11,117 nucleotides of DNA from Nanobdellota archaeon (GTDB lineage Archaea; Nanobdellota; Nanobdellia; B33-G15). A program made the translations under genes and the position numbers. The stretch spans positions 1 through 11,117 of the forward strand of contig QMVD01000018.1 in assembly GCA_003660925.1 (NCBI GenBank), read 5' to 3'. Shown piece by piece: positions 1-11,117 of the stretch. Each line of letters starts with the position of its first letter. The stretch's first letter is position 1. Below the pieces are notes generated by a model. The model was not told the DNA's origin, made no database searches, and worked only from the letters and a program-made list of their open reading frames with translations.

Positions 1-2
1 AT

Positions 3-116
3 GAGAAAGAGGTGGATGCCTTCATAAACCTAGTATGCGATGAGATCAGGCGAAAGAAGTTCAAGGTGCTGAAGGTCCCGAAGAAACAGGGTTCAATAAT
101 TCACTTCTGCAAGTGA
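3..116 (+). CDS. 3' end of an unidentified CDS (partial, runs off the left edge)
   Basis: The frame starting at nt 3 is open to a TGA at 114-116 and reads ...EKEVDAFINLVCDEIRRKKFKVLKVPKKQGSIIHFCK. It abuts the convergent stop of the minus-strand gene (tgatca at 114-119). It is too short for a family call. Confidence 0.3.
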   Translation, partial: EKEVDAFINLVCDEIRRKKFKVLKVPKKQGSIIHFCK

Positions 117-941
117 TCATATGATTAGTTTTAGCTTTTTCACTTCTGACCTTTCTCCGGCCCACTTGTGCTTGGCCGTGCCCCTTACCTTCCTCTCGAG
201 CACCTCTCCATCCTTGAGGACATAGGCGAACTTTTCCGTCTTTTCCTTTCCCTTCTCCTTCACCCTGAGCTCGCTGATGCCGACGATGTACTCCTCTCCG
301 AAGAGCCCTTCCACTCCAGTCATGAAGGCTACCTCTTCTCTTCTCGATGGGAACCACACGCCCCCTGGAAACTTAAGGAAGGTAAACAATTGGGGAGAAA
401 CCTCCATTCGGATGGTCATCTTACTTATCACCAAATCCCCGAGGTCTATCGTTTTGGCATCAGGAACGGAGACGCGTTTCTGATACACCTTCACCCTCAG
501 CACGTTTAGATACGCTTCCTTCTCCGATCTGTAATGATCCACTTCCATCACAGGAGGGTCGAAAGGGGCCTGATCCTCCCTGAAGAAGCGCATGTTGGTC
601 CAACACGAATATTTCTCCGAATGCTTGAACTTTGAGACCTTCTCTGAGAACTTCGTCAAGTAATCGGCTGCCTTCTTCACCTCCTCGACCATCTCCTCCT
701 GAAAGAAGGAGATGTTCAAGCTATTCGGATCTTTCCCCTTAAGGCCGTAGATGATGCCCACCAAGTCGTCCCTCTTCATGGTGTCTTCTACCTCTCGAAG
801 AGCATCTTCCAAGGTGACCTCCCCTTCCTCAGGAACCCCTCCGGGGAACCTGACCGAGATGGAAGGAGTCAACACGTTAACTACATCATAGAGGCTTATC
901 TCCCTCCTCATCTCCTTCCAAAGCTCCTCTCTTGTTACCAT
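117..941 (-). CDS. hypothetical protein, 274 aa, no family recognised
   Basis: This is the long minus-strand ORF from the track. I start it at the ATG at 941 (MVTREELWKEM...) rather than the TTG at 1019, because a TATA-like box lies about 26 nt upstream of 941. The composition looks protein-like. An internal FPGGV motif occurs twice (SVRFPGGVPEEGEV and FLKFPGGVWFPSRREEV). Confidence 0.6.
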   Translation of the reverse strand: MVTREELWKEMRREISLYDVVNVLTPSISVRFPGGVPEEGEVTLEDALREVEDTMKRDDLVGIIYGLKGKDPNSLNISFFQEEMVEEVKKAADYLTKFSEKVSKFKHSEKYSCWTNMRFFREDQAPFDPPVMEVDHYRSEKEAYLNVLRVKVYQKRVSVPDAKTIDLGDLVISKMTIRMEVSPQLFTFLKFPGGVWFPSRREEVAFMTGVEGLFGEEYIVGISELRVKEKGKEKTEKFAYVLKDGEVLERKVRGTAKHKWAGERSEVKKLKLII

Positions 942-962
942 TGTTAAATAGTGGTAGAGCGT

Positions 963-972
963 CTTTAATAAT
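963..972 (-). promoter_or_regulatory. TATA-like box for the 117..941 gene (leaderless layout)
   Basis: The minus strand reads ATTATTAAAG, centred about 26 nt upstream of the ATG at 941. Confidence 0.4.
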
Positions 973-991
973 TTTCGAAAATGTGGAAAAA

Positions 992-999
992 CTTTTAAG
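992..999 (+). promoter_or_regulatory. TATA-like box for tRNA-Phe
   Basis: CTTTTAAG is preceded by the purine-rich GGAAAAA and is centred about 28 nt upstream of the tRNA 5' end at 1024. Confidence 0.45.
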
Positions 1000-1054
1000 G
1001 GGTACCTCACTAAAAACAACGATGGGGAGGTAGCTCAGCCCGGGAGAGCGCACG

Positions 1055-1706
1055 ATGGGGGCGGAAACGATTCGTCAAGAAGAGTGGGAACTAATCGGCG
1101 CAGTGATAGGCGATGGAAACCTCTACAGTCACAAGAAGCACTACAGAGTACACCTAACGGGACACCCTAAAAAAGATAGGAATTACTACGAGTACCTCAA
1201 AGAACTAATAAGAAAGTGTTGGGGTAAAAAAGCAAGGATTAAAGTGAGACAAAGAGCCCTCAGATTAACAGTGTATTCGAAGGAGGTGTATGAGAAATTG
1301 AAGAAGTTGGGGATCCCTGAAGGAAGGGAAAAACACAAAAAAGTCACCATTCCGAAAATGGCGTGGAGGGACGAAGGAGCGCTGAAGAAAGTGATCAGAG
1401 GCATCGCTGATACTGATGGTTCAGTGTTCATCTCAGACAAGAAGAGAGCTAAGGCGTATCCCAGCGTCGAGATAACAACTAGTAGCAAAACACTTGCATG
1501 TGAAATAAGAAGTGCTTTGAACAACTTCGGTTTTAGGGTGGCAAACCTGAGGAGGTATAAATCAAAGAAGAGTAGGTGTAAGAGTTACAAGGTATCTTTG
1601 TACGGGAAGACAAACTTGGAGAAATGGATGAAAGAGATTGGATTTTCGAACCCTTCAAAGCGCGAAAAGGCGCTTTTATGCTTAGTGGGTTCCGCCCCCA
1701 TGCGAA
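1055..1706 (+). mobile_element. BHB-type intron carrying a homing endonuclease gene (putative mobile intron)
   Basis: The splice motif has a 3-nt bulge C1053 G1054|A1055, a 4-bp helix of 1049-1052 (CGCA) with 1701-1704 (TGCG), and a 3-nt bulge A1705 A1706|G1707. An 11-bp GC-rich helix (1056-1066 TGGGGGCGGAA with 1690-1700 TTCCGCCCCCA) closes the intron. The interior looks more A-rich than the flanking host genes. Confidence 0.7.
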
Positions 1707-1711
1707 GCTGA
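1055..1711 (+). CDS. LAGLIDADG homing endonuclease, monomeric two-motif type (I-DmoI-like architecture)
   Basis: The 218-aa ORF has motif 1 LIGAVIGDGNLY near the N-terminus and motif 2 VIRGIADTDGSVF about 100 residues later. Acidic residues are retained in both motifs. Each motif is followed by a basic DNA-binding-like segment. Confidence 0.85.
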   Translation: MGAETIRQEEWELIGAVIGDGNLYSHKKHYRVHLTGHPKKDRNYYEYLKELIRKCWGKKARIKVRQRALRLTVYSKEVYEKLKKLGIPEGREKHKKVTIPKMAWRDEGALKKVIRGIADTDGSVFISDKKRAKAYPSVEITTSSKTLACEIRSALNNFGFRVANLRRYKSKKSRCKSYKVSLYGKTNLEKWMKEIGFSNPSKREKALLCLVGSAPMRS

Positions 1712-1836
1712 AGCCCGTGATGTCGGGGGTTCAAATCCCCCCCTCCCCATGATGAAACTCAGGCAAAGGTGTTAGAAGACCTGGAAAAAGCTTATTGCAT
1801 CCTACCAAAGGGGTAAGATAATTCCTCGACTTTTGT

Positions 1837-1850
1837 AAAAAAGAAAAAAA
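1837..1850 (-). terminator. oligo-T tract downstream of the decayed minus-strand gene
   Basis: The minus strand reads TTTTTTTCTTTTTT immediately after the stop at 1851-1853. This is a typical archaeal oligo-T termination signal. Confidence 0.4.
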
Positions 1851-2231
1851 TCATTTAGGGCCTTCTGCTTTATTTAACACGTCATACTCGAAAAGCCATT
1901 CTGTGGGGTTCCAACTCACTAATTTTCCCCCTTCGCAATCTACATCATTGCTCAGCACTAACCAGATCTTAACTTTTTCTCTTTCCAAAATGATTTCTGG
2001 CAAGTTGCCCTTAATGTGAAGATCCCTTTCATCATTTGCTGTTCCAGATTCTATGCACGTGGCATAAGGCCAAACATCGTTGTGCTATGATCACATCTTC
2101 TCCTCTCAACTTCAAGTCTGCCACTTCGCAGGCGACCCCCAGTAAGCGGCTGGAGTTAGCTTTAAAGCTACTGCTCCCGCGGTCACCAATAGGGTCGCTG
2201 CGAGCAAACCGAAGAGAAATAACTTTTTCAT
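1851..2231 (-). pseudogene. probable decayed gene for a small secreted or membrane-anchored protein
   Basis: The ATG at 2231 is preceded by GGGTGA about 7 nt upstream. It gives MKKLFLFGLLAATLLVTAGAVALKLTPAAYWGSPAKWQT, then four in-frame stops between 2114 and 2085. The same frame then reopens for 77 codons (HNDVWPYATCIESGTANDERDLHIKGNLPEIILEREKVKIWLVLSNDVDCEGGKLVSWNPTEWLFEYDVLNKAEGPK) to the stop at 1851-1853. A second frame is open across the stop-rich patch. Confidence 0.35.
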
Positions 2232-2289
2232 TTAAGTTTCACCCAAAAAGTAATAACATTTCTCACTTAAATGTGTTTTGGAAAGCACT

Positions 2290-2300
2290 AAATTTTTATT
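2290..2300 (+). promoter_or_regulatory. TATA-like box for the MinD-like gene
   Basis: AAATTTTTATT is centred about 27 nt upstream of the ATG at 2323. Confidence 0.4.
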
Positions 2301-2322
2301 GTTCGCGGGATATGTTAAACTC

Positions 2323-3093
2323 ATGACCAGGATTCTCTGCGTGGCTTCTGGGAAGGGAGGTGTCGGGAAGACCACCACCGTAATAAACTTAGGTGCTGCT
2401 CTCTTCCACTTCGGCCAGCGAGTGTTGATCATCGACGGGAACGTGACCACCCCAAACCTGTCACTCCACTTGGGGATAGCTAAGGAGAAGCCTACCTTGC
2501 ACGATGTCTTGGAAGGTTCGGTCAGCATAGAGAACGCCATTCACCTTCATTCCTCCGGATTGATGGTCATCCCAGCCGGGATCTCTTTGACCAATTTGAG
2601 GAAGATCTACAAGAAGACCATAGCTCAAGCCATAACCGGGATCGCCGGTAGGTTCGACTGGGTCCTGATAGACGTCCCAGCAGGATTGGGAAGGGAAGCG
2701 AGGTTGGCCATAGAGGCGGCGAATGAGGTGGTTGTGGTCACCAATCCCGAATTGCCCGCTGCTGTCGACGCCTTGAAGGTCTCCAGGTTGGCTAAAAATT
2801 TGGGGACGTCCCCTTTGGGGGTGATAGTTAATAAATTTGCTGGGGAGAAGGAGGAGATGAGTCCGGAAAACGTGGCGGAGTTCGTGGAGCTCCCCTTATT
2901 GGGGGTGATCCCCTACTCCACCCTCTTCCTTAAAGCTCTTTCTGCCAAGTATCCCTTGGTGTTATTATATCCCAACTCCACCCCCGCTGTCCAGTACAAG
3001 AAGATAGCTGCTGCCCTCCTTGGAGAGAGGTATGAAATCATAGAAAAACCCAGCATCATCCAGCGAATAAGGAGGTTCTTAATAAGGATATGA
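2323..3093 (+). CDS. minD: MinD/ParA-family P-loop ATPase (archaeal MinD-like)
   Basis: The deviant Walker A CVASGKGGVGKTTT includes the signature lysine. The Walker B-like WVLIDVPAG is present. The C-terminus SIIQRIRRFLIRI looks amphipathic, like a membrane-targeting helix. The start is set at MTRILCVASG (ATG 2323), not the track's 2278. Confidence 0.85.
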   Translation: MTRILCVASGKGGVGKTTTVINLGAALFHFGQRVLIIDGNVTTPNLSLHLGIAKEKPTLHDVLEGSVSIENAIHLHSSGLMVIPAGISLTNLRKIYKKTIAQAITGIAGRFDWVLIDVPAGLGREARLAIEAANEVVVVTNPELPAAVDALKVSRLAKNLGTSPLGVIVNKFAGEKEEMSPENVAEFVELPLLGVIPYSTLFLKALSAKYPLVLLYPNSTPAVQYKKIAAALLGERYEIIEKPSIIQRIRRFLIRI

Positions 3094-3710
3094 ACGTCGT
3101 CATTTCCGTCGGCGGGAGCAGGTTGTTCAAGGGAACGGAACTAGACATAAAGTTCCTCGAGGAACTCAAGGAACTCGTAGGGAAGAGGAAAGAAAGGTTC
3201 TATCTCGTGGTTGGGGGAGGGTGGGTGGCGAGGAAGTTCCAAGGGTATGGGAGGAGATTGGGATTGGATGATGTCCAACTGGACCTGATAGGGATCGCTG
3301 CCACCAGGCTGAACGCGGAACTCGTGCGGAACTTCTTAGGGGTCAAGACCCCGGTCCTAACGAATCCCTTGGACGTCAAACATAAAGAGAAAGTATTGGT
3401 GTTCTCAGGCTGGAAGCCTGGCTTCTCCACGGACTACGTGGCAGTGAGGCTAGCTAAGGAGGCGGGGTCTGACAAGGTGATCAACATATCTAAAGTAGGT
3501 TACATTTACAAAAAAGGGAGGAAGGTAAGAGAAATATCTTGGGAAGAGGCGGGAAAAATGGCTGGGGAGTGGAGGCCTGGTCTGAACTTCCCAGTCGATC
3601 CCATGGCCTGTAAATATGGGAAAGGGTTAAAATTCTACTTGGTGAGGGAAACCGAGGATCTGGAGAACGTCTTGGATGGAAAACCCTTTAGAGGCACCCT
3701 GATCCGATGA
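3090..3710 (+). CDS. pyrH: amino-acid-kinase-fold protein, archaeal UMP kinase (PyrH)-like but divergent
   Basis: The protein is collinear with archaeal PyrH as I remember it: VGGSRL, LVVGGGWVARKF, LIGIAATRLNAEL, GWKPGFSTDYVAVRLA, VDPMA. The usual NVDGVY..DP segment reads ISKVGYIYKKGR. The ATGA at 3090-3093 overlaps the minD stop. Confidence 0.6.
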   Translation: MNVVISVGGSRLFKGTELDIKFLEELKELVGKRKERFYLVVGGGWVARKFQGYGRRLGLDDVQLDLIGIAATRLNAELVRNFLGVKTPVLTNPLDVKHKEKVLVFSGWKPGFSTDYVAVRLAKEAGSDKVINISKVGYIYKKGRKVREISWEEAGKMAGEWRPGLNFPVDPMACKYGKGLKFYLVRETEDLENVLDGKPFRGTLIR

Positions 3711-4191
3711 GGTGAGCTAACCTTATGGGTTCCGGGATCCTGTATTTCGTGTATTTCTTGGTGAGCCTTACCGCTTCCTCCAAGGAGATCTTGTGACCTA
3801 CTGACACGTAAATGGGCTTCGAGCTCGTCTTTAAGACCGCGCCTATTCTCTCCTTCCCGTCGTAGACGTAGTTCCCTTTAACTTCCCCGAACAATAAGCT
3901 CTTAGCGACCCCTACGGTGGGCTTGTCTAAAACCTCTCCTATGAAGGTGGCCAGGCCCTTCCTCTCTGGGTGTAACTTCCCGTTCCCGTCCACGAAGAGG
4001 ACATCGAACTCTAACCCTGCTAGGGCTTTTAACATCAATGGCCCCTCCCTGAACCTCAACAATCCAGGGATGTAGGGGAAGTTCACCTCCCCTCCGACCT
4101 TCCTCACCTTGACTAACTTGAAATCTTTCATGACGACGGCACAAGCCACGGGGTTTCCCTTATAACTAATGTCCACTCCTGCCACCAACAT
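3688..4191 (-). CDS. nfi: endonuclease V (short, 167 aa)
   Basis: Motifs seen are VAGVDISY, FPYIPGLLRFREGP, LFVDGNGKLHPERKGLATFIG, PTVGVAKS and YRIPEPIRLAH. The start is set at the ATG at 4191. The longer track ORF runs antisense through another gene and through tRNA-Gly. The 3' end overlaps the convergent pyrH-like gene by 23 nt. Confidence 0.85.
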   Translation of the reverse strand: MLVAGVDISYKGNPVACAVVMKDFKLVKVRKVGGEVNFPYIPGLLRFREGPLMLKALAGLEFDVLFVDGNGKLHPERKGLATFIGEVLDKPTVGVAKSLLFGEVKGNYVYDGKERIGAVLKTSSKPIYVSVGHKISLEEAVRLTKKYTKYRIPEPIRLAHLIGSGCL

Positions 4192-4211
4192 GGTTGAAAA
4201 GACGTTCAGGG

Positions 4212-4244
4212 GTTTATCAAACTTCGGGAAAACTTTAAAATAAG
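4212..4244. promoter_or_regulatory. divergent promoter region between nfi and the 4264 gene
   Basis: CTTTAAAATAAG (4233-4244) is centred about 26 nt upstream of the ATG at 4264. On the minus strand, TTTGATAAAC (about 4212-4221) lies about 24 nt upstream of the nfi ATG at 4191. Confidence 0.4.
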
Positions 4245-4263
4245 AGGATGTTAATAAGGAAGC

Positions 4264-4638
4264 ATGAACGAGGAAAAGAAGAAACCATTGGTTCCTCCAC
4301 CGCCTTCTGTCCCGCCAGTGCGCCCAACCTTGCCGACGCCACCGACCGCTCCAGCTCCGATGCCACCCAAGCCACCCATCCCGGACATAAAACCGCCTAA
4401 GCCGACCGTGAAGCCCGTGAAGCCTCACGTCTTCGTGAAGATAACTTCTTACAGGGAGATCATGGAGAGGATAGAGGAGATCAAGGCGAGCATGCACAAG
4501 TTGGCCCAGTTGTTGTCCGAGATGGCTGTGAGCACTAGGAGGGAGGAGGAGAAGATAGCCACTTTGGGACAGGTCCTGAACAGCATAAACCAGAACCTGC
4601 AAGTGGTGGATGATATCTTCTCGGAGCCAGAGGAGTAG
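4264..4638 (+). CDS. hypothetical protein, Pro-rich N-terminus plus coiled-coil C-terminus (124 aa)
   Basis: MNEEKKKPLVPPPPSVPP...KPPKPTVKPVKP is followed by HVFVKITSYREIMERIEEIKASMHKLAQLLSEM..., which shows heptad-like periodicity. A TATA-like box sits at the leaderless distance. The protein is weakly similar to the 5566 gene product. Confidence 0.6.
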   Translation: MNEEKKKPLVPPPPSVPPVRPTLPTPPTAPAPMPPKPPIPDIKPPKPTVKPVKPHVFVKITSYREIMERIEEIKASMHKLAQLLSEMAVSTRREEEKIATLGQVLNSINQNLQVVDDIFSEPEE

Positions 4639-4650
4639 AATTTTAAAAAC
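4639..4650 (+). promoter_or_regulatory. TATA-like box for tRNA-Gly
   Basis: AATTTTAAAAAC is centred about 27 nt upstream of 4672 and starts directly after the stop codon of the preceding CDS. Confidence 0.45.
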
Positions 4651-4671
4651 ATCCTTCTCTCTTATCTTTGA

Positions 4672-4742
4672 GCGCCGGTAGTCTAGTGGTAGGACACTGC
4701 CCTCCCAAGGCAGCGACCCGGGTTCGAATCCCGGCCGGCGCA
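4672..4742 (+). tRNA. tRNA-Gly(CCC)
   Basis: The acceptor stem is GCGCCGG/CCGGCGC. The anticodon arm is CTGCC-CTCCCAA-GGCAG, with anticodon CCC at 4704-4706. The T arm is CCGGG-TTCGAAT-CCCGG and the discriminator is A4742. There is no intron and no encoded CCA. Confidence 0.9.
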
Positions 4743-4745
4743 TCT

Positions 4746-5195
4746 TCACTTCGGTACTACTAACTCTCCGAACTTCTCGTAGGAACCCTTCTTAAAAGCT
4801 AGGGCGGAAAGAGCACAGAGGTAAGCATCCCTTTCGTGCTTGTTTCTCCCTAAAGACCTGAATTTTTCCCTGAAGGCTCCTGGGAAGGTCTCTATCACCT
4901 CGACACCATGTCTTTCTAGTTCTCCTTTAAGCCTCCTTGCCCTCTCATACAACTTCTTCATGGAAGGGAGGGAAAGTGGAAGGGGTTTGAAGCCCCTTTT
5001 CATGAGCTCTTCCTCCTCCTTCCTCCATGGAGAATTAAAGGTCAAAGGGGCGTCTATGGCCACTACCTCGCAATCTTTCAAGGCCTCAATGATCTCCTCA
5101 TCCTCTTTGAGGGAAAGGGTCTTGATGGAATCGTTCATTATGCAAACTCCTGAGACCCTCTTCTCGCTCGCGGACAGATCCAACCCACCTATCAC
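4746..5195 (-). CDS. predicted RNase H-fold nuclease (DUF429-like), 149 aa
   Basis: The GTG start gives (M)IGGLDLSASEKRVSGVCI. Further motifs are VVAIDAPLTF and NKHERDAYLCALSA near the C-terminus. This pattern recalls the DUF429/COG2410 predicted nucleases. The stop lies 3 nt from the tRNA-Gly 3' end. Confidence 0.55.
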   Translation of the reverse strand: MIGGLDLSASEKRVSGVCIMNDSIKTLSLKEDEEIIEALKDCEVVAIDAPLTFNSPWRKEEEELMKRGFKPLPLSLPSMKKLYERARRLKGELERHGVEVIETFPGAFREKFRSLGRNKHERDAYLCALSALAFKKGSYEKFGELVVPK

Positions 5196-5230
5196 AGGAA
5201 GATATGAATCCCCGAACTTTTAGGTTTTTT

Positions 5231-5245
5231 CAAAAAAAGAAAAGG
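5231..5245 (-). terminator. oligo-T tract after the small minus-strand ORF
   Basis: The minus strand reads CCTTTTCTTTTTTTG, 16-30 nt downstream of the stop at 5261-5263. It is part of a T6-C-A7 palindrome. Confidence 0.3.
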
Positions 5246-5260
5246 AGGTGGGTGGGAACA

Positions 5261-5386
5261 TCACTTGGCCCTCTTGCTCAGGAGCTCTATCCTCTTTTTG
5301 TACCACTCCAAGAGCTCCCTCCTCCTCATCTCCCTCTCGTCGAGCCTCCTCATGAGCTCATCGAAGTTGAGGAACCTTCCCATCAT
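5261..5386 (-). CDS. small basic helical protein, 41 aa (hypothetical)
   Basis: The sequence is MMGRFLNFDELMRRLDEREMRRRELLEWYKKRIELLSKRAK. GGTGGTGAGG lies directly upstream of the ATG. A TATA-like TTTAAATTAAAAAG lies about 34 nt upstream, and an oligo-T tract lies downstream. It is below the track's size cutoff. Confidence 0.35.
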   Translation of the reverse strand: MMGRFLNFDELMRRLDEREMRRRELLEWYKKRIELLSKRAK

Positions 5387-5454
5387 GCCTCACCACCGAG
5401 ATAGAGATGGTCTTTTTAATTTAAATGGAGAAAGATGGCCTTTCCCCTTTTCCG

Positions 5455-5467
5455 ATATTTTTTAAAT
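5455..5467 (+). promoter_or_regulatory. TATA-like box for tRNA-Val
   Basis: ATATTTTTTAAAT is centred about 30 nt upstream of 5492. Confidence 0.45.
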
Positions 5468-5491
5468 CCGAAATTGCTTCAATTTTTAGTC

Positions 5492-5564
5492 GGGCCCGTG
5501 GTCTAGTGGCTATGACACCACCCTCACACGGTGGGGGTCCCCGGTTCGAATCCGGGCGGGCCCA
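5492..5564 (+). tRNA. tRNA-Val(CAC)
   Basis: The acceptor stem is GGGCCCG/CGGGCCC. The anticodon arm is CCACC-CTCACAC-GGTGG, with anticodon CAC at 5525-5527. The T arm is CCCGG-TTCGAAT-CCGGG and the discriminator is A5564. There is no intron. Confidence 0.9.
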
Positions 5565-5565
5565 T

Positions 5566-6015
5566 ATGAATGAGGACTACTTCGTCAGGATAGAGGAACC
5601 GGAGAAGGTGAAGCAGTACATGGACGTGCTCTCTTCCCTCTTGAGGAGGGCGAGGAGCATAACAGAAGAACTAGGAGACATAAAGGACAAGAAGAAGGCC
5701 ATAAAGGACCTAGTGAAGGAAGAAGTCAAAAAGATGGAAGCGGCATTGAATCAGGTGGAAAAGATGCTGAGCAAGGAGGAGAAGCCAAAGGCGAAGAAAC
5801 CCAAGGCGAAGGCAAGGCCTAAGGAGGCAAAGCCTGAAGTCAAGCCAGTGGAGGTAAAACCCGTCGAGGTAAAAGCCAAAGAGGAGAAACCCCCTGAGGT
5901 GATGGCAAAACCAGAGGAGGTCAAGGAGATCGAGGAGAAGAGGGATGAATTAAGGGAGAGCATAAAGAGTCTCAGGGGAGAGCTGGAAAAACTCAAGAAG
6001 GAACTGGAAGGTTAG
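5566..6015 (+). CDS. hypothetical coiled-coil protein with Lys/Pro/Glu-rich repeat region (149 aa)
   Basis: The sequence starts MNEDYFVRIEEPEKVKQYMDVLSSLL... and continues ...KPKAKKPKAKARPKEAKPEVKPVEVKPVEVKAKEEKPPEV...LRGELEKLKKELEG. The track ORF start at 5425 reads through tRNA-Val and is rejected. An alternative start is the ATG at 5620, with GGTGA 8 nt upstream. Confidence 0.6.
   Translation: MNEDYFVRIEEPEKVKQYMDVLSSLLRRARSITEELGDIKDKKKAIKDLVKEEVKKMEAALNQVEKMLSKEEKPKAKKPKAKARPKEAKPEVKPVEVKPVEVKAKEEKPPEVMAKPEEVKEIEEKRDELRESIKSLRGELEKLKKELEG
5830..5886 (+). repeat. in-frame 15-nt tandem repeats encoding KP(V/E)EV units
   Basis: aagccagtggaggta (5842-5856) and aaacccgtcgaggta (5857-5871) both encode KPVEV. 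Degenerate copies flank them on both sides (KPEV, KAKEE). Confidence 0.5.
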
Positions 6016-6019
6016 AAAG

Positions 6020-6030
6020 CCTTATTAAAC
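6020..6030 (+). promoter_or_regulatory. TATA-like box for tRNA-Leu
   Basis: CCTTATTAAAC is centred about 27 nt upstream of 6052. Confidence 0.45.
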
Positions 6031-6051
6031 TTTCTCTGCCTTTTTCTTAGT

Positions 6052-6168
6052 GCGGGGGTGCCCGAGCCAGGTCAAAGGGGGCAGGCTCAAGTTCGACTTG
6101 AGCGCTGATGAAAAGATGAGGAACCTGCTGCCTTAGTGGCTGCGTGGGTTCAAATCCCACCCCCCGCA
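6052..6168 (+). tRNA. tRNA-Leu(CAA) with a 31-nt canonical (37/38) intron at 6092-6122
   Basis: The acceptor stem is GCGGGGG/CCCCCGC and the anticodon stem is GCAGG/CCTGC. The loop is CTCAAG|intron|A, with anticodon CAA at 6088-6090. The BHB core has bulge A6090 G6091|T6092, helix CTCA (6086-6089) with TGAG (6117-6120), and bulge G6121 A6122|A6123. The long variable arm is TGCCTTAGTGGCTGC, the T arm is GTGGG-TTCAAAT-CCCAC, and the discriminator is A6168. Confidence 0.9.
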
Positions 6169-6210
6169 TCCTGAAAGTTGCTCCTTGACCCTTAATTTTC
6201 GCCGAACTTC

Positions 6211-6227
6211 AATTAATTATAAAAAAG
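6211..6227 (+). promoter_or_regulatory. TATA-like box for the RCK-domain gene
   Basis: AATTAATTATAAAAAAG is centred about 27 nt upstream of the ATG at 6247. Confidence 0.4.
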
Positions 6228-6246
6228 TGGGCGACTTACCTTAAGC

Positions 6247-6942
6247 ATGATAGAGTGGGAGGATGTCAAAGGGTTCTTGCTCACGCTCTTCCTCTTCGTC
6301 TCCTTCCTCTTCCTATTTGCCGTCACCTACTCCTACATAACTGGGGAGAGCTTATCTAAGGCTGTGGGGGACGCATTAGTGCGCATATTTGGGATGGAAG
6401 ATGTGAAAGCGTCCTTGACGTCCGCCATGTTCCTGTTCCTCTCCAGCATGCTCATATGGTTCGTCGTGGATTACATCGTCAGGATACTCGTTAAGTTAGA
6501 GTTAGGAGGTGTTACCAGCATGGTGAAGGCAAAAGGCATGAGGGACCACTACATAATCTGTGGCTTCGGGAGGGTTGGAAGTCATGTGGCCAAGAGGCTC
6601 AAGAAAGAGAAAAAGAAGGTGTTGGTCATCGATGTGAGTGAAGAGGCCCTGAAAGAGGCAAGAGGATATCCTGTGATCAAGGGCGACTGCCTTCAGGAGA
6701 AAATCTTGAAGTTGGCCGGGATCAAAAAGGCCAAGGCCATCATATGTGCCTTGGGGAAGCCTGAGAGCAACGTGTTCCTGACCATAACAGCAAAGCACCT
6801 GAACCCAAGCATAACAGTTGGGGCAAGGGCGGATGATGCTGACATCGCGGCGAAGCTCAGGCATGCGGGTGCGGACGTGATCATAATGCCCGAAGCCATA
6901 GGTGGATATAAATTGGCCGAAGAAGTGATGAAGAAGGGATGA
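6247..6942 (+). CDS. two-TM membrane protein with TrkA-N/RCK NAD-binding domain (MthK-like architecture)
   Basis: Two hydrophobic helices are present (FLLTLFLFVSFLFLFAVTY and AMFLFLSSMLIWFVVDYIV). They are followed by a Rossmann motif HYIICGFGRVGSHVAKRL and an RCK N-lobe that is collinear with MthK as I remember it. There is no TVGYG filter and no TrkA-C lobe. Confidence 0.75.
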   Translation: MIEWEDVKGFLLTLFLFVSFLFLFAVTYSYITGESLSKAVGDALVRIFGMEDVKASLTSAMFLFLSSMLIWFVVDYIVRILVKLELGGVTSMVKAKGMRDHYIICGFGRVGSHVAKRLKKEKKKVLVIDVSEEALKEARGYPVIKGDCLQEKILKLAGIKKAKAIICALGKPESNVFLTITAKHLNPSITVGARADDADIAAKLRHAGADVIIMPEAIGGYKLAEEVMKKG

Positions 6943-8330
6943 ACTTAAGGGAGTATCAGAGGAAAATATTAGAGAGGGCTAGGGAGAAGAACACTTTAGT
7001 GGTGTTACCCACAGGAACAGGAAAGACCTTAATTGCTCTCAAGTTAGGTCTGGAAAAGAAGGGAAAAGTTCTCTTTCTGGCCCCGACCAAACCATTGGTG
7101 GAGCAACACAGGAGGAGCTTGGAGAAGTGGTTTGGGGTGAAGGGGATTACCCTAACTGGAGAGGTGAAGCCAGAGGAGAGGAGGAGGTTGTGGGAGGAGA
7201 ATAGGTTCATTTTCGCAACGCCCCAGACCATAAGGAACGATTTGATGAAGGGGAGGATAAGTTTGGATGAAGTGTCCTTGATCGTCTTTGACGAAGCGCA
7301 TAGGGCGGTGGGGGACTACGCTTATGTCTACATCGGGAGGAAATACAGAGGACACGTGATCGCTCTAACTGCCTCTCCAGGGGATGAGGAAAAGCTCAGG
7401 GAGATCTGTAAGAACCTGAATATAGAGCACATAGAGTGGAGGAGCGAGGAGGATGAGGACGTGAAGCCCTATCTCATGGGAAAAGAGGTGGTCATGATAA
7501 AGGTGGAGCTCCCCGAGAAGTTGAAAGAGGCAAGGGACTCGCTGAAGGACTGTTTGAACCGCTTGTTGGATAAGTTGAAGGAGAGTGGTTACGTGAGAGA
7601 GAGGGTGAGGAAGAGGGACCTCTTGGAGTTACAGAAAAGGACGAAGAAGCCGATGGTCTTGTCCTTAGTGGCTAGTGCCATAAAAGCTTGGCACGCCAAG
7701 GACCTGTTGGAGATGTACGGGAAGTCAAGTTTCATGCGCTTCGTCCAAAATTTGAGAAGGGATGGGAGGCTCGCTTCCAAGAGGTTGCTGGGTATGGATT
7801 GTTTCAGAAAAGTCATAGGAATGGAGGTGGAAGAACATCCAAAGCTAGGGGCCTTGAAGCTCATATGTTCCAGAGAGAGGGGGAACATGATCATATTCAC
7901 CCAATACAAGCACACCGCTGACATGCTCAAGGAGTTCTTGAAGGACGCTGAGATCTTCGTAGGTCAAAGCAGGATGAAGCAAAAGGAACAGATAGAGACC
8001 TTGAGGAGGTTTGAGAGAGGAGAGTTCAGGACCCTGATAGCCACGAGCATAGGGGAGGAAGGATTACACATCCCAGATGTGGACATCGCTGTCTTCTTCG
8101 AGCCAGTTCCATCTGCCTTGAGGATGATCCAAAGGAAAGGGAGGGTGGGGAGGACCAAGTTTGGGAAGATATACATCTTGATGACGAAGGGGACGAGCGA
8201 TGAAGTTTATTATTGGACCTCAAGGAGGAAGGAAAGGAAGATGATGAAAGGTTTGAAAACTATTGAAGAGGAGTTGAAAAAAGGTAAAAAGCAGAAGAAG
8301 TTATGGGAGTTCTATGCAGAGGATGCTTGA
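6939..8330 (+). CDS. hef: Hef (FANCM-like) SF2 helicase domain protein
   Basis: Motifs seen are LVVLPTGTGKT, LFLAPTKPLVEQH, ATPQTIRNDL, IVFDEAHRAVGDYAY, LTASPG, FVGQ, LIATSIGEEGLHIPDVD and VPSALRMIQRKGRVGR. The protein is collinear with the Pyrococcus Hef helicase half as I remember it. The ATGA at 6939-6942 overlaps the upstream stop. Confidence 0.9.
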   Translation: MNLREYQRKILERAREKNTLVVLPTGTGKTLIALKLGLEKKGKVLFLAPTKPLVEQHRRSLEKWFGVKGITLTGEVKPEERRRLWEENRFIFATPQTIRNDLMKGRISLDEVSLIVFDEAHRAVGDYAYVYIGRKYRGHVIALTASPGDEEKLREICKNLNIEHIEWRSEEDEDVKPYLMGKEVVMIKVELPEKLKEARDSLKDCLNRLLDKLKESGYVRERVRKRDLLELQKRTKKPMVLSLVASAIKAWHAKDLLEMYGKSSFMRFVQNLRRDGRLASKRLLGMDCFRKVIGMEVEEHPKLGALKLICSRERGNMIIFTQYKHTADMLKEFLKDAEIFVGQSRMKQKEQIETLRRFERGEFRTLIATSIGEEGLHIPDVDIAVFFEPVPSALRMIQRKGRVGRTKFGKIYILMTKGTSDEVYYWTSRRKERKMMKGLKTIEEELKKGKKQKKLWEFYAEDA

Positions 8331-8949
8331 GGAGGTGGAGGTCGTAGCGGATTACAGGGAGAGGAAGGTGTTGGAATACTTAAAAGACTTGAAGGTGAAG
8401 ACAAGGTCCCTTCCAGTGGCAGACTTCATCATATCTGGGAGGTGCGCCATAGAGAGGAAGAGCGTGAGGGATTTCGCGGAATCCATAAAGAGCGGGAGGA
8501 TATTCAAGCAGGCAGAGGAGTTGAAGCAATTCGAGAGGCCCATAATCGTGATCGAGGGGAGCAACTTCTACGACATCCCTCTCCACCCCAACGCGGTCAT
8601 GGGAGCGATAGCTTCCTTGATCTTAGACTTTGGCATCGTGGTGATAAACACGAGCGATGCTGGGGAGACCGCTGCCCTGATAAGGGCGTTGGCTATCAGG
8701 GAGAAAAAGGAGAGGAGGGAAGTGGCCTTGAGGGGGAAGAAGAAACCAAAGGGGTTAAAACAGCTCCAAGAATATTTCCTAGAAGGATTGCCCCACATAG
8801 GGCCGAAGCTCGCGAAGCGCATACTCAACCACTTCAAGAGCGTGAAGAATTTCATAAACGCGAGCGAGTCCCAGATGAAGAGGGTAGAAGGACTAGGAGA
8901 GAAGAAAGTGAGAGACATAAAGAGGGTGATAGATTCTGAATACAAATAA
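8314..8949 (+). CDS. hef: Hef/XPF-type ERCC4 nuclease domain plus tandem helix-hairpin-helix
   Basis: Motifs seen are VVADYRE, VADFIISGRCAIERKSVRDF (ERK box), PIIVIEG, HPNAVMGAIASL, then GLPHIGPKLAKRIL and VEGLGEKKVRDI (two HhH). GGGAG lies 4 nt upstream of the ATG at 8314. The ORF overlaps the helicase ORF by 17 nt in a different frame. Confidence 0.9.
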   Translation: MQRMLEEVEVVADYRERKVLEYLKDLKVKTRSLPVADFIISGRCAIERKSVRDFAESIKSGRIFKQAEELKQFERPIIVIEGSNFYDIPLHPNAVMGAIASLILDFGIVVINTSDAGETAALIRALAIREKKERREVALRGKKKPKGLKQLQEYFLEGLPHIGPKLAKRILNHFKSVKNFINASESQMKRVEGLGEKKVRDIKRVIDSEYK

Positions 8950-8953
8950 GTAT

Positions 8954-9904
8954 GTGATCGTTGGAGTGGACGCGGGATTGAACGTGGCATGGGCCATCCT
9001 TGACCTAAGTGGGAACCTCTTAGGTCTGGGGAGCAAGAAAGGACTGGGGAGGGGGATAATAGGGGAGGTGAAGAAATATGGGGAGCCCCTCATCGTATCC
9101 ACGGACGTGAGCAAGCCCCCCAGGTTAGTGAGGGAGCTCGCCACTTCCTTTGGGGCCAAGCTCTTCCTTCCGAAGGAGGACATGAGGATCAAAGAAAAAG
9201 AGGTGTTGACTAAAGGATTCGTGTTCGGGAACAGGCACGAGAGGGATGCGTTGGCATCTGCCCTCAGGGCGTTCAAGGAGATAGAGGGTTTGGTGAGGAG
9301 GGTGAAGAGAAGGGGAGGGGATGAGGAGGTCATCAAGAAGATCCTGAAAGGGGAAGCGAAGAACATAAGGGAGGCTATGAGGGTTGAGGAGGAGAGGAAG
9401 GGAAGGGTGAGGAAGAAGAGGAGGAAGATGTCAGTTGAGGAACTCCTCGAGCTCGTGGAGAGGCTGAAGGAAGAGAATGAGAGGTTGAGGAAAGAGAGGA
9501 GGTGGGTGGTTTACAAGGTGTCTGAAGTGAGGCCTAGGATCTTGATAGAGGATAAGGCGAAAGTGATGAACAAGTTGCTGAAAGATGGTAAGATCCCCAT
9601 CCTGAAGGTGGAGGGGAAGAAGGACTTGAAGGACGTTTACAAAGATGTCGTCTACCTCAAGACCCAGGACGAGAAGATCTTGGAGGAGCTAAAGAGGAGA
9701 AAGGTGAGAGTGTTGATCATGGACGAACCGAAGGAGATAAAAGGGTTCGTGACCGTGAAAAGGAGCGATTTAAATATCAAGGAAGAGGATGGAATAGAGT
9801 ATGTGGAGTTCAAGGAGTTCGAGCGCTTGGTTGAGAAGATCGTTAAGGAGATGGTCAAGGAAGTACTCGAGGATTATAGGAGGATTAGAGAGGCGTTTAT
9901 CTGA
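8954..9904 (+). CDS. DUF460/COG2433-type predicted RNase H-fold nuclease with coiled-coil and C-terminal domain (316 aa)
   Basis: The GTG start gives (M)IVGVDAGLNVAWAILDLSGNLL. Further motifs are GEPLIVSTDVSKPPRLVRELATSFGAKLFLP and NRHERDALASALRAF. A basic coiled coil follows (EELLELVERLKEENERLRKERR). The start lies 4 nt after the nuclease stop. Confidence 0.65.
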   Translation: MIVGVDAGLNVAWAILDLSGNLLGLGSKKGLGRGIIGEVKKYGEPLIVSTDVSKPPRLVRELATSFGAKLFLPKEDMRIKEKEVLTKGFVFGNRHERDALASALRAFKEIEGLVRRVKRRGGDEEVIKKILKGEAKNIREAMRVEEERKGRVRKKRRKMSVEELLELVERLKEENERLRKERRWVVYKVSEVRPRILIEDKAKVMNKLLKDGKIPILKVEGKKDLKDVYKDVVYLKTQDEKILEELKRRKVRVLIMDEPKEIKGFVTVKRSDLNIKEEDGIEYVEFKEFERLVEKIVKEMVKEVLEDYRRIREAFI

Positions 9905-9917
9905 GAGGAACAAGAAG

Positions 9918-10379
9918 TTGTTTTTCGTCCTCAGGTTCTTGGTGAGGTTCCTCATCTTGGCCGTCCCCTTATATCTTTTCGAACGCTTGGACCTCTTCGC
10001 CCTGCAGGACTTAGAAGCGAAGCAGGTGAGTTACATCCTAAATTTACTCGGACAAGAGTCCGAAGTGGTTTACGTGAATAACATCCCAAGCATAGTGTAC
10101 CAAGGGAGGGGGATAGGAATCATAGGGGCGTGCACAGGTTATCGTTCCTTCTTCGCCCTCGTGGCCCTGATCCTGGCGGTCCCGAAGGTGAGTTGGAAGA
10201 AGAGGAAGTTGGGGGTGTTACTGGCCCTACCTAGCATCTACATCTTCAACCTCATGAGGTTGGTGAGCACCGTCCTCTTGTCCCAGTTCATAGAGTTTCA
10301 GGTGATACACGATTACCTCTGGATATACGGGATGACCTTCCTAGTCCTGCTTCTTTGGCTCTTTTGGCTCAAGCTCTAA
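9918..10379 (+). CDS. small archaeosortase/exosortase-family protein (ArtE-like size)
   Basis: The protein is polytopic and hydrophobic, with the family's Cys/Arg/His pattern: GIIGACTGYRS, IFNLMRLVS, QVIHDYLWIYG. The start is uncertain. I use the TTG at 9918, which has GAGG 9 nt upstream. GTG 9942 is an alternative. The track's ATG at 9801 overlaps the DUF460 gene by 104 nt. Confidence 0.55.
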   Translation: MFFVLRFLVRFLILAVPLYLFERLDLFALQDLEAKQVSYILNLLGQESEVVYVNNIPSIVYQGRGIGIIGACTGYRSFFALVALILAVPKVSWKKRKLGVLLALPSIYIFNLMRLVSTVLLSQFIEFQVIHDYLWIYGMTFLVLLLWLFWLKL

Positions 10380-10919
10380 CTTGATGACCTTCCCCCCTGG
10401 GCTCACTTCCTTGAAGATCTCTGCTGTGAAGGCGTATAGCTCCACGTCCTCCCCTCTCCAGGCGAGCGGGGAGAGGCCTGCCTTCACGCAGGTCTGGGAG
10501 AGAAACTCCTCTCTGTCCCATCCCCACTCCAAGGGGACTTGAGGGAGCAAGAGGCCGGAGAAGAATCCCTTCTTGACGATCAACCCATGCTTTCCCACCT
10601 TCACCTCTTCGGGCTTTATGGGCTTTGGCTTCGTCAGCACAGAGACCTCTATAGTGATTTCGTCTAATTCTTCTTTCTCGAGAGGGAGGAACCTGGGGTC
10701 CTTAAAGGCCGCGGCTTTAGCTGCTTCCACTACCCCCTCGTACAAAGGGAGGATGGGTTGAGGGAAACCTATACAGCCCCTCAACTCCCCGTGTTTGAGG
10801 AGCGTGACGAAGACCCCCATGGGCTCCCCCCCTTTCACCTTCAGTTCTTCTCCCTTGAAATGATATTCTATCGCCTTCCTCGCCAACCTCACCAGCTTCT
10901 CCCCTTCCCTCAGATCCAT
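10341..10919 (-). CDS. AMMECR1 domain protein
   Basis: Motifs seen are GVFVTLLKHGELRGCIGFP, HGLIVKKGFFSGLLLPQV and EEFLSQTCVKAGL, and the length is typical. The 3' end overlaps the convergent archaeosortase-like gene by 39 nt. Confidence 0.85.
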   Translation of the reverse strand: MDLREGEKLVRLARKAIEYHFKGEELKVKGGEPMGVFVTLLKHGELRGCIGFPQPILPLYEGVVEAAKAAAFKDPRFLPLEKEELDEITIEVSVLTKPKPIKPEEVKVGKHGLIVKKGFFSGLLLPQVPLEWGWDREEFLSQTCVKAGLSPLAWRGEDVELYAFTAEIFKEVSPGGKVIKLELEPKEPKKQD

Positions 10920-10933
10920 ATCCTTTGGGAAAA

Positions 10934-10949
10934 GCTTTAATTATAATAA
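10934..10949. promoter_or_regulatory. shared near-palindromic TATA region for the divergent AMMECR1 and wHTH genes
   Basis: In GCTTTAATTATAATAA, the + reading is centred about 27 nt upstream of the ATG at 10965. The minus reading (TTATTATAA) is centred about 27 nt upstream of the ATG at 10919. Confidence 0.4.
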
Positions 10950-10964
10950 GTTTTGCTCCCCTCC

Positions 10965-11117
10965 ATGGAGAGGAAACAGGCCATCATAGAATTCCTGAGA
11001 GAAAACGGTCCCTCACATCCCATCCAAGTGAACAAGGTGTTGGGGCTTGACAGCTTCACAGCCTCCGCCATCCTGAAGGAGATGTTGGAGGAAGGTCTCG
11101 TCAAGAGGAGCGTGAAA
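10965..11117 (+). CDS. 5' part of a putative winged-helix DNA-binding protein (partial, runs off the right edge)
   Basis: MERKQAIIEFLRENGPSHPIQVNKVLGLDSFTASAILKEMLEEGLVKRSVK is open to the window end. The pattern is typical of an N-terminal wHTH (name-like helix, LG turn, recognition helix, EEGLV wing). Confidence 0.5.
   Translation, partial: MERKQAIIEFLRENGPSHPIQVNKVLGLDSFTASAILKEMLEEGLVKRSVK

Follow-up and report, generated by a model that had tools for sequence, protein, structure and literature searches.

A tRNA-Phe gene of a DPANN archaeon interrupted by an intron with a putative LAGLIDADG homing endonuclease gene, and relatives of that gene beside other tRNA-Phe genes

An 11,117-nucleotide (nt) stretch of contig QMVD01000018.1 from a Nanobdellota archaeon (assembly GCA_003660925.1, positions 1 to 11,117, forward strand; hereafter the window, with all features below on the + strand) contains a gene for phenylalanine transfer RNA, tRNA-Phe(GAA), that is split in the 5' strand of its anticodon stem, between tRNA positions 30 and 31, by a 652-nt bulge-helix-bulge intron (1055-1706) occupied by an open reading frame (ORF) for a LAGLIDADG protein. 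The locus is probably a working tRNA-Phe(GAA) gene of this DPANN archaeon with a homing endonuclease intron at 30/31, and we hold with high confidence that its anatomy is that of a homing endonuclease intron moved from the ribosomal RNA (rRNA) setting to a tRNA gene. The evidence consists of the exons themselves, compensatory changes in the splice motif, the fold and conserved residues of the encoded protein, and relatives of its gene found beside or within other tRNA-Phe genes.

The split tRNA-Phe gene

Joining 1024-1054 (31 nt) to 1707-1749 (43 nt) yields a 74-nt tRNA-Phe(GAA) for which ARAGORN draws a full cloverleaf (stems of 7/4/5/5 base pairs (bp), T loop TTCAAAT) with no defect in the exons, in agreement with the first-pass annotation of this DNA. 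On the joined exons, the 5' exon supplies tRNA positions 1-30 and the 3' exon positions 31-73, including the anticodon GAA at 1710-1712; CCA is not encoded, and the predicted spliced junction, where 1054 meets 1707, reads ...GAGCGCACG/GCTGAAGCCC.... When long introns are allowed, ARAGORN also finds the gene in the uncut DNA (1023-1750) with an intron of 652 nt, and together with the joined exons this bears out the proposed insert between positions 30 and 31. This mode sets the junction off by one or two bases and mistyped many relatives that have non-canonical introns, so a structural parser was written for the tRNA-Phe genes of the relatives. The G+C content is 44% in the intron and 69% in the exons.

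In its default mode ARAGORN misses the split gene and calls just two tRNAs in the window, tRNA-Gly and tRNA-Val; the Rfam model for tRNA misses it as well, detecting a T-arm fragment only (1724-1741). Since standard tRNA finders miss genes with long introns, some DPANN genomes reported without a particular tRNA may simply carry it as a long-intron gene, which fits the remark of Kaneta et al. that incomplete DPANN tRNA sets point to unidentified disrupted tRNA genes (PMC5829648).

A TATA-like box recognised by eye (CTTTTAAG, 992-999), preceded by the purine-rich stretch GGAAAAA and located about 28 nt upstream of the tRNA 5' end, is presumed to be the archaeal promoter of the tRNA-Phe transcription unit. 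In relatives, similar boxes of the TTTAAA type occur after the stop codon of the endonuclease gene and before the start of the tRNA.

A relaxed bulge-helix-bulge motif

The exon-intron boundaries can be drawn as a bulge-helix-bulge in which CGCA at 1049-1052 (tRNA nt 25-28) pairs with TGCG at 1701-1704 (intron nt -6 to -3) in a central helix H of 4 bp, flanked by two 3-nt bulges at 1053-1055 and 1705-1707. The splicing enzyme cuts after the second bulge nucleotide, and this rule together with the exon junction predicts a 5' cut at 1054/1055 (CG/A); the predicted 3' cut is at 1706/1707 (AA/G). Each bulge lies 3' of its helix strand, the geometry of the motif described in PMC8393795. The intron is closed by an inner helix h' of 11 G+C-rich bp between TGGGGGCGGAA (1056-1066) and TTCCGCCCCCA (1690-1700), which is kept in the minimum-energy fold of the full precursor. 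The outer helix h is of 2 bp, A23-U33 and G24-C32 (1047-1048 with 1708-1709), both invariant in all 35 genes compared and followed by a G-G mismatch. With flanking helices of 11 bp inside and 2 bp outside, the motif fails the strict hBHBh' definition, which has two flanking helices, and is of the relaxed HBh' form; the earlier description of it as textbook was accurate for the 3-nt bulges, the 4-bp helix and the 11-bp terminal helix, and too generous for the outer helix. The central helix borrows nucleotides of the D stem and the anticodon stem, so the motif forms at the cost of the mature tRNA fold.

The tRNA-Phe genes found beside relatives of the endonuclease gene (described below) allowed a comparative test of this motif. 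They were parsed by tRNA criteria (acceptor pairing, anticodon-stem pairing and a GAA loop), so that the exon junctions were chosen without reference to the central helix. Among the 44 genes recovered, 38 have an intron at 30/31 and six have no intron at all. The four central pairs (nt 25-28 with intron nt -6 to -3) are all formed in 37 of the 38 introns, by 12 different sequence combinations. When 35 distinct junction constructs were aligned without gaps, 93.6% of cells were paired, versus 30-39% when the partners are slid by one to three columns; 10 of the 12 pairs, including all four central ones, show compensatory change, and none of 500 shuffles reached the observed pairing or covariation. 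Such compensatory conservation is strong evidence that the 30/31 motif is under selection and hence that these introns are, as far as comparison of genes can tell, spliced.

These results bear directly on whether the insertion might have destroyed this copy of the tRNA-Phe gene, with an intact copy elsewhere serving the cell. A dead gene would be in keeping with the weak outer helix and with the absence of the splice motif from the minimum-energy fold, but the exons have no defect, the TATA-like box stands at the right distance, the motif has been kept by compensatory changes in four independent ORF-bearing and 33 short copies, and the region is identical between strain variants; we regard loss of function as very improbable.

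The endonuclease ORF and its product

The ORF (1055-1711) encodes 218 amino acids (aa) and is the sole long ORF on the + strand at this locus. Its ATG opens at the first nucleotide of the intron, the nearest in-frame stop upstream being TAG at 1031-1033 (tRNA nt 8-10), and its TGA stop (1709-1711) consists of U33, G34 and A35 of the tRNA, in exon 2. The frame is thus complete in the unspliced precursor only, and the 218-codon ORF is not wholly interior to the intron as had been thought.

The first-pass annotation assigned the product to the LAGLIDADG homing endonucleases by eye, and profile searches agree: Pfam LAGLIDADG_3 matches with E=2.2e-11 and 44.3 bits (cut-off 22.5), and a profile search against solved structures matched an intein endonuclease, I-Tsp061I and I-DmoI. 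Both motifs noted at first, ELIGAVIGDGNL (1088-1123, aa 12-23) and VIRGIADTDGSV (1391-1426, aa 113-124), retain their acidic residues; among 30 relatives, D121 is invariant and D20 is kept in at least 90%. The AlphaFold2 model of the 218-aa protein (predicted local distance difference test score (pLDDT) 94.7, predicted template modelling score (pTM) 0.92) puts D20 at the end of predicted helix 8-20 and D121 at the end of predicted helix 107-121. The best solved-structure matches of the model in Foldseek are the TliVMA intein endonuclease, PI-PfuI, I-Tsp061I and I-DmoI (E values of 1e-10 to 1e-8), with a template modelling score of about 0.7 to I-Tsp061I. The protein, as modelled, is a two-domain LAGLIDADG monomer whose active site looks intact. 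It would be expected to cleave DNA site-specifically, and the intron ORF is presumably translated.

LAGLIDADG genes are found in group I introns of DPANN rRNA genes (PMC6125680), and a self-splicing group I intron with an embedded endonuclease gene was therefore considered for this locus. A sensitive Rfam scan of the window gave no group I match, the ORF fills 652 of the 652 nt and leaves no room for a ribozyme core, and relatives of 15-47 nt at the same site are too short to be ribozymes; the chance of a group I intron here is negligible.

Relatives of the endonuclease gene at tRNA genes

An identical protein is annotated as hypothetical in a metagenome-assembled genome labelled 'Nanoarchaeota archaeon', and the same locus arrangement, with the same neighbours, is present in four independent assemblies from different samples. 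The source samples bear the identifiers 3300028891 and 3300021499 (JGI) and ERZ27227314 (ENA). A word-index search returned 87 relatives, mostly about 45-55% identical, in genomes that bear the labels Nanoarchaeota, Diapherotrites, Aenigmarchaeota, Hadarchaeaceae and Bathyarchaeota. In 185,579 genomes, each standing for one species, 104 relatives were confirmed, a lower bound limited by the search pattern, and 80 were fetched. A search for a viral or plasmid carrier found no relatives in IMG/VR or among deposited phage genomes.

When flanking sequences were clustered, those of the window fell together with downstream flanks from over 40 loci, and the sequence in common was tRNA-Phe. A loose automatic test placed a tRNA-Phe 3' half within 450 nt in 62 of 85 loci, against a control of 10 matches in 284 kilobases of distal flank; with cases read by eye, linkage to tRNA-Phe holds for at least 60 of the 85 loci examined. 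A looser automatic classifier gave spurious matches inside ORFs, and the class counts that follow were made without its output.

Four arrangements can be distinguished. In the first, represented by four loci, the endonuclease gene lies within the 30/31 intron. Besides the window (intron of 652 nt, central helix CGCA/TGCG), these are L085, the closest homolog (57% identity), with an intron of 631 nt, an ORF that is wholly intronic and the central helix CGAC/GTTG; L005, from an Aenigmatarchaeota genome, with an intron of 638 nt, a frame that begins before the tRNA and ends in exon 2, and the helix CGGC/GCCG; and L030, from an Undinarchaeota genome, with an intron of 630 nt, a GTG start and the helix CACC/GGTG. 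In the second arrangement, the endonuclease gene is located 17-107 nt upstream of tRNA-Phe on the same strand, and most of the tRNA-Phe genes have an ORF-less intron of 15-47 nt exactly at 30/31 (at least 25 loci). These short introns often start with ATGG, as does the intron of the window, and many of the genes have a second intron at 37/38. Three metagenomic members picked from the protein list (L088, L089 and L090) all belong here. The notion that the upstream free-standing genes ride in the leader transcript of the tRNA was dropped as a general rule, since a TATA-like box usually follows the ORF stop and precedes the tRNA gene. In the third arrangement, the endonuclease gene is convergent with a tRNA-Phe gene on the opposite strand, mostly one with a 30/31 intron, which is short and ORF-less at about 10 loci. 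In the fourth, the 3' end of the ORF overlaps the 5' end of the tRNA, as in three Micrarchaeota loci (L046, L052 and L059) and one Aenigmatarchaeota locus (L054); the ORF stops there at tRNA nt 8-10 with TAG or TAA (tRNA genes at L046 1659-1734, L052 3118-3191, L059 3159-3237 and L054 ~3124-3219), so that 5' processing of the tRNA would remove the end of the message.

Several features of individual loci may be recorded here. Eight loci, mostly labelled Iainarchaeum, have introns at both 30/31 and 37/38 that leave a 7-nt middle exon, GCTGAAG (L007, L008, L016, L020, L029, L031, L057 and L089). One free-standing relative, at CP010424.1 990378-991001, adjoins a tRNA-Phe gene with two introns (991045-991212). 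The last 15 nt of tRNA-Phe recur, with at most one mismatch, 67-91 nt past the gene in four of 44 loci (L022, L030, L041 and L088), and a similar extra fragment of T arm and acceptor occurs in L024 and L038; these duplicated 3' ends could be recombination footprints or att-like repeats, and no second copy was seen in the window. Immediately downstream of the endonuclease gene at L067 (~1830-1960) there is a tandem duplication of about 62 nt that resemble the 5' portion of a tRNA (GCGGTAGCTCAATCTGAGAAGAGC...). Contigs binned as bacterial (Saccharibacteria, Dojkabacteria) or as 'Methanosarcinales' (L027, L041, L012, L039, L062, L065, L073-L075 and L079) carry the endonuclease gene together with an archaeal-type tRNA, mostly with introns and tRNA-Phe where typed; they are probably mis-binned DPANN contigs.

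The most distant relatives, at 30-33% identity, are located at other tRNA genes such as tRNA-Thr (L070 3107-3178, L081 3094-3167, L077 3134-3206, and the downstream flanks of L074-L076 and L079), among them a tRNA-Thr(CGT) overlapped by the end of the ORF, a tRNA-Thr(TGT) on the opposite strand and one further intron-containing tRNA. The wider clade may therefore consist of endonucleases specific for tRNA genes. A neighbour-joining tree, which has no support values, unites the window with L085 and L005 in a single clade and places L030 elsewhere; this suggests at least two moves of the endonuclease gene into, or out of, the intron.

The linkage can also be read differently, and the main alternative to a homing element is a domesticated LAGLIDADG host factor tied to tRNA-Phe, either an aid to folding or splicing of the weak 30/31 motif or a DNA-binding regulator, for which the intronic place would be one of several tolerated positions. 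Linkage to tRNA-Phe in four arrangements across several phyla with otherwise unrelated neighbours, intact ORFs in all sampled members, the same relaxed 30/31 intron in most partner genes and the labelling of some members as WhiA-like regulators in some sources all fit such a role. However, both catalytic acidic residues are kept, unlike in WhiA-type domains, and the Pfam WhiA_N match has an E value of only 0.6; the six partner genes without introns leave a splicing helper without a task; and the distribution of the 104 relatives among so many species genomes seems patchy. LAGLIDADG maturases assist group I introns, but we know of no maturase for protein-spliced introns. On balance we judge domestication unlikely.

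A possible route by collaborative homing

Under the reading that we prefer, the primary transcript would carry the 652-nt intron and fold into the relaxed bulge-helix-bulge, the tRNA-splicing endonuclease of the cell would cut both bulges, and RNA ligase would join the exons; excision and ligation at 30/31 are predicted from the motif and its conservation. The loop of the inner helix would hold the gene of a monomeric two-domain LAGLIDADG homing endonuclease, which most likely recognises the uninterrupted tRNA-Phe gene near GGGAGAGCGCACG^GCTGAAGCCCGTG and cuts there, the element being copied into the cut site by repair, now or in the recent past. That the target is the 30/31 insertion site is suggested by the relatives that, in divergent hosts, sit inside the intron at that site.

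The relatives further suggest how the arrangement in the window may have come about. Phages provide a precedent in collaborative homing, in which an intron without an ORF and an endonuclease encoded by a free-standing gene come to share one site, and the gene subsequently enters the intron (PMC3984707). The corresponding configuration, a free-standing endonuclease gene adjoining a gene with an ORF-less intron, is present here at the 25 or more upstream loci and the roughly 10 convergent ones. Since most relatives are free-standing beside a tRNA-Phe gene with a short intron, the endonuclease gene may have moved into a pre-existing short 30/31 intron, and the window would then represent the fused stage of the pathway, with the endonuclease gene inside a formerly separate intron. 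The tRNA gene does contain an ORF-bearing intron, as first noted, but the order of events implied by calling it invaded may have to be reversed. In its full form the proposal is that a free-standing family of archaeal LAGLIDADG endonucleases targets tRNA-Phe at 30/31, that the short intron protects the genome and travels with the gene, and that the gene entered the intron at least twice (once in the clade of the window, L085 and L005, and once in L030); we offer this tentatively, as a scenario somewhat short of even odds. If it is true, homing endonucleases create and spread non-canonical tRNA introns, and such introns amount to immunity against those enzymes.

Two observations hint at mobility. 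An intron-less tRNA-Phe gene on an unrelated metagenomic contig (L091, 2743-2814) has an exact match of 26 nt (GGGAGAGCGCACGGCTGAAGCCCGTG) across the 30/31 junction and could be an uninterrupted target. When the contigs of two strain variants (L003 and L004) are compared with the window over 216-1750, the 14-15 differences all fall within the upstream gene (216-804), with a 1-nt gap at 800, and the following 946 nt (805-1750), spanning the promoter, tRNA-Phe and the whole intron, are free of them; divergence just upstream of tRNA-Phe is 2.5%. The identity of this block might stem from gene conversion of the element or from a recent sweep, or it might mark a branch point in the assembly. Both variant contigs end at the 3' end of the tRNA. 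Mobility of the element and the direction of its evolution are thus suggested by comparison of sequences.

Various points weigh against this interpretation. Regarding splicing, a 116-nt mini-precursor folds best in another way, at -62.1 kcal/mol versus -58.3 kcal/mol with the motif enforced; the gap is 3.8 kcal/mol, so thermodynamics alone neither predicts nor excludes the motif. With an outer helix of 2 bp and competition from the D stem, cleavage would need a splicing endonuclease of broad specificity. Regarding expression, the linear intron would, once excised, yield a message without a stop codon, and a circularised intron (predicted junction, intron 3' end to 5' end, ...CCATGCGAA/ATGGGGGCGG...) would read through to 255 aa. 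Regarding homing, a metagenome scan, made once, found no intron-less allele in a close relative, the 26-nt junction occurring only in the non-syntenic L091. The six partner tRNA-Phe genes that have no intron would need some other protection from the endonuclease, and the integrity of the protein family in about 100 genomes could also mean a host function instead of ongoing homing.

Some of these points would also be expected of a fixed relic, in which the intron is spliced and the tRNA works while the endonuclease, inactive or without targets, is stranded late in the homing cycle. The presence of the intron in all four assemblies of the population and the failure to find an intron-less allele in a related genome agree with fixation, and a start codon buried in the 11-bp G+C-rich helix and a stop codon outside the intron should both lower expression. 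A decaying gene would hardly be expected to have a full-length ORF with all family-conserved positions and a confident fold, and zero substitutions in the 652-nt intron versus 2.5% just upstream fit recent transfer or selection better than decay; a relic is improbable, if a little less so than domestication.

Comparison with known introns and endonucleases

The intron of the window resembles the archaeal rRNA introns of I-DmoI, I-PorI, I-ApeI and I-Tsp061I in combining a bulge-helix-bulge with a LAGLIDADG protein of some 200 aa that is monomeric and has two motifs. It differs from them in that the host is a tRNA and not 16S or 23S rRNA, in that identity to those enzymes is about 20%, in the relaxed motif with its 2-bp outer helix made of D-stem and anticodon-stem nucleotides, and in an ORF that runs from the first intron nucleotide into exon 2. 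Papers on rRNA introns describe many of them as encoding homing endonucleases, and tRNA introns are not so described. The full-text literature searched, from which most subscription journals are absent so that an earlier description is possible, contained no endonuclease-bearing archaeal tRNA intron and no tRNA-Phe-linked endonuclease family, and a long review of tRNA introns contained none of the words homing, ORF or LAGLIDADG. Within that literature, endonuclease-bearing bulge-helix-bulge introns of archaea were found described for rRNA genes only, in accord with the first-pass remark that archaeal tRNA introns normally carry no ORF.

Non-canonical short tRNA introns with relaxed motifs are found in Thermoproteales, DPANN and Asgard archaea and need a splicing endonuclease of broad specificity (PMC5829648, PMC11291895); in DPANN archaea the splicing endonucleases are reported to have a loop linked to the cutting of disrupted tRNA genes (PMC5829648). 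The intron of the window is like them in its site outside 37/38, its relaxed motif and the frequent occurrence of several introns per gene among its relatives. Whereas they measure tens of nt and have no ORF, tRNA-Phe has at its 30/31 site an endonuclease-bearing intron of 630-652 nt in some loci and a short intron without an ORF in others. How archaeal tRNA introns at non-canonical positions originate and spread is a question to which the locus is pertinent: rRNA introns have a known vehicle in their homing endonucleases and none was known for tRNA introns, and this locus with its relatives is a candidate for one. At one site of one tRNA there is a graded series from no intron, through a short intron with the endonuclease gene next door, to the gene inside the intron. 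The suggestion that an endonuclease intron could be a route by which tRNA introns spread is strengthened by this comparative series, in which no mobility event has been observed. The likeness to collaborative homing in phages lies in a free-standing gene beside a fixed-site intron and relatives inside that intron, the free-standing enzymes here being putative cutters of the 30/31 site; in contrast to the phage systems, the intron is protein-spliced and not self-splicing, and the hosts are archaeal chromosomes and not phages.

Other endonucleases are associated with tRNA genes in bacteria and phages. The tRNA-fMet gene of cyanobacteria has a group I intron with a homing endonuclease. Such bacterial introns occupy the same niche, an intron-encoded endonuclease in the anticodon arm, but they are ribozymes and their nucleases belong to a different family; there is no group I signal at the present locus. 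SegB of phage T4 is a GIY-YIG enzyme that promotes inheritance of a tRNA region with no intron involved. It resembles the endonucleases considered here in being encoded by a free-standing gene among tRNA genes, and differs in nuclease family, phage host and lack of an intron. PMC13096335 describes SegB as a free-standing homing endonuclease in the tRNA gene cluster of T4. The archaeal enzymes may be of use as reagents, being compact and presumably recognising a nearly universal tRNA sequence, and some of them are probably thermostable.

Other features of the window

A weak match to the C/D-box small RNA family sR52 at 8265-8319 (22.4 bits against a gathering score of 50, E=0.39) is most likely due to chance. 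The window contains three further tRNA genes. Those for tRNA-Gly(CCC) and tRNA-Val(CAC), at 4672-4742 and 5492-5564, have no intron, and that for tRNA-Leu(CAG) (6051-6171) has an ordinary 31-nt intron at the canonical site, confirming its earlier use as the ordinary case for comparison. The other tRNA genes of the window having an ordinary intron or none, the long intron is specific to tRNA-Phe.

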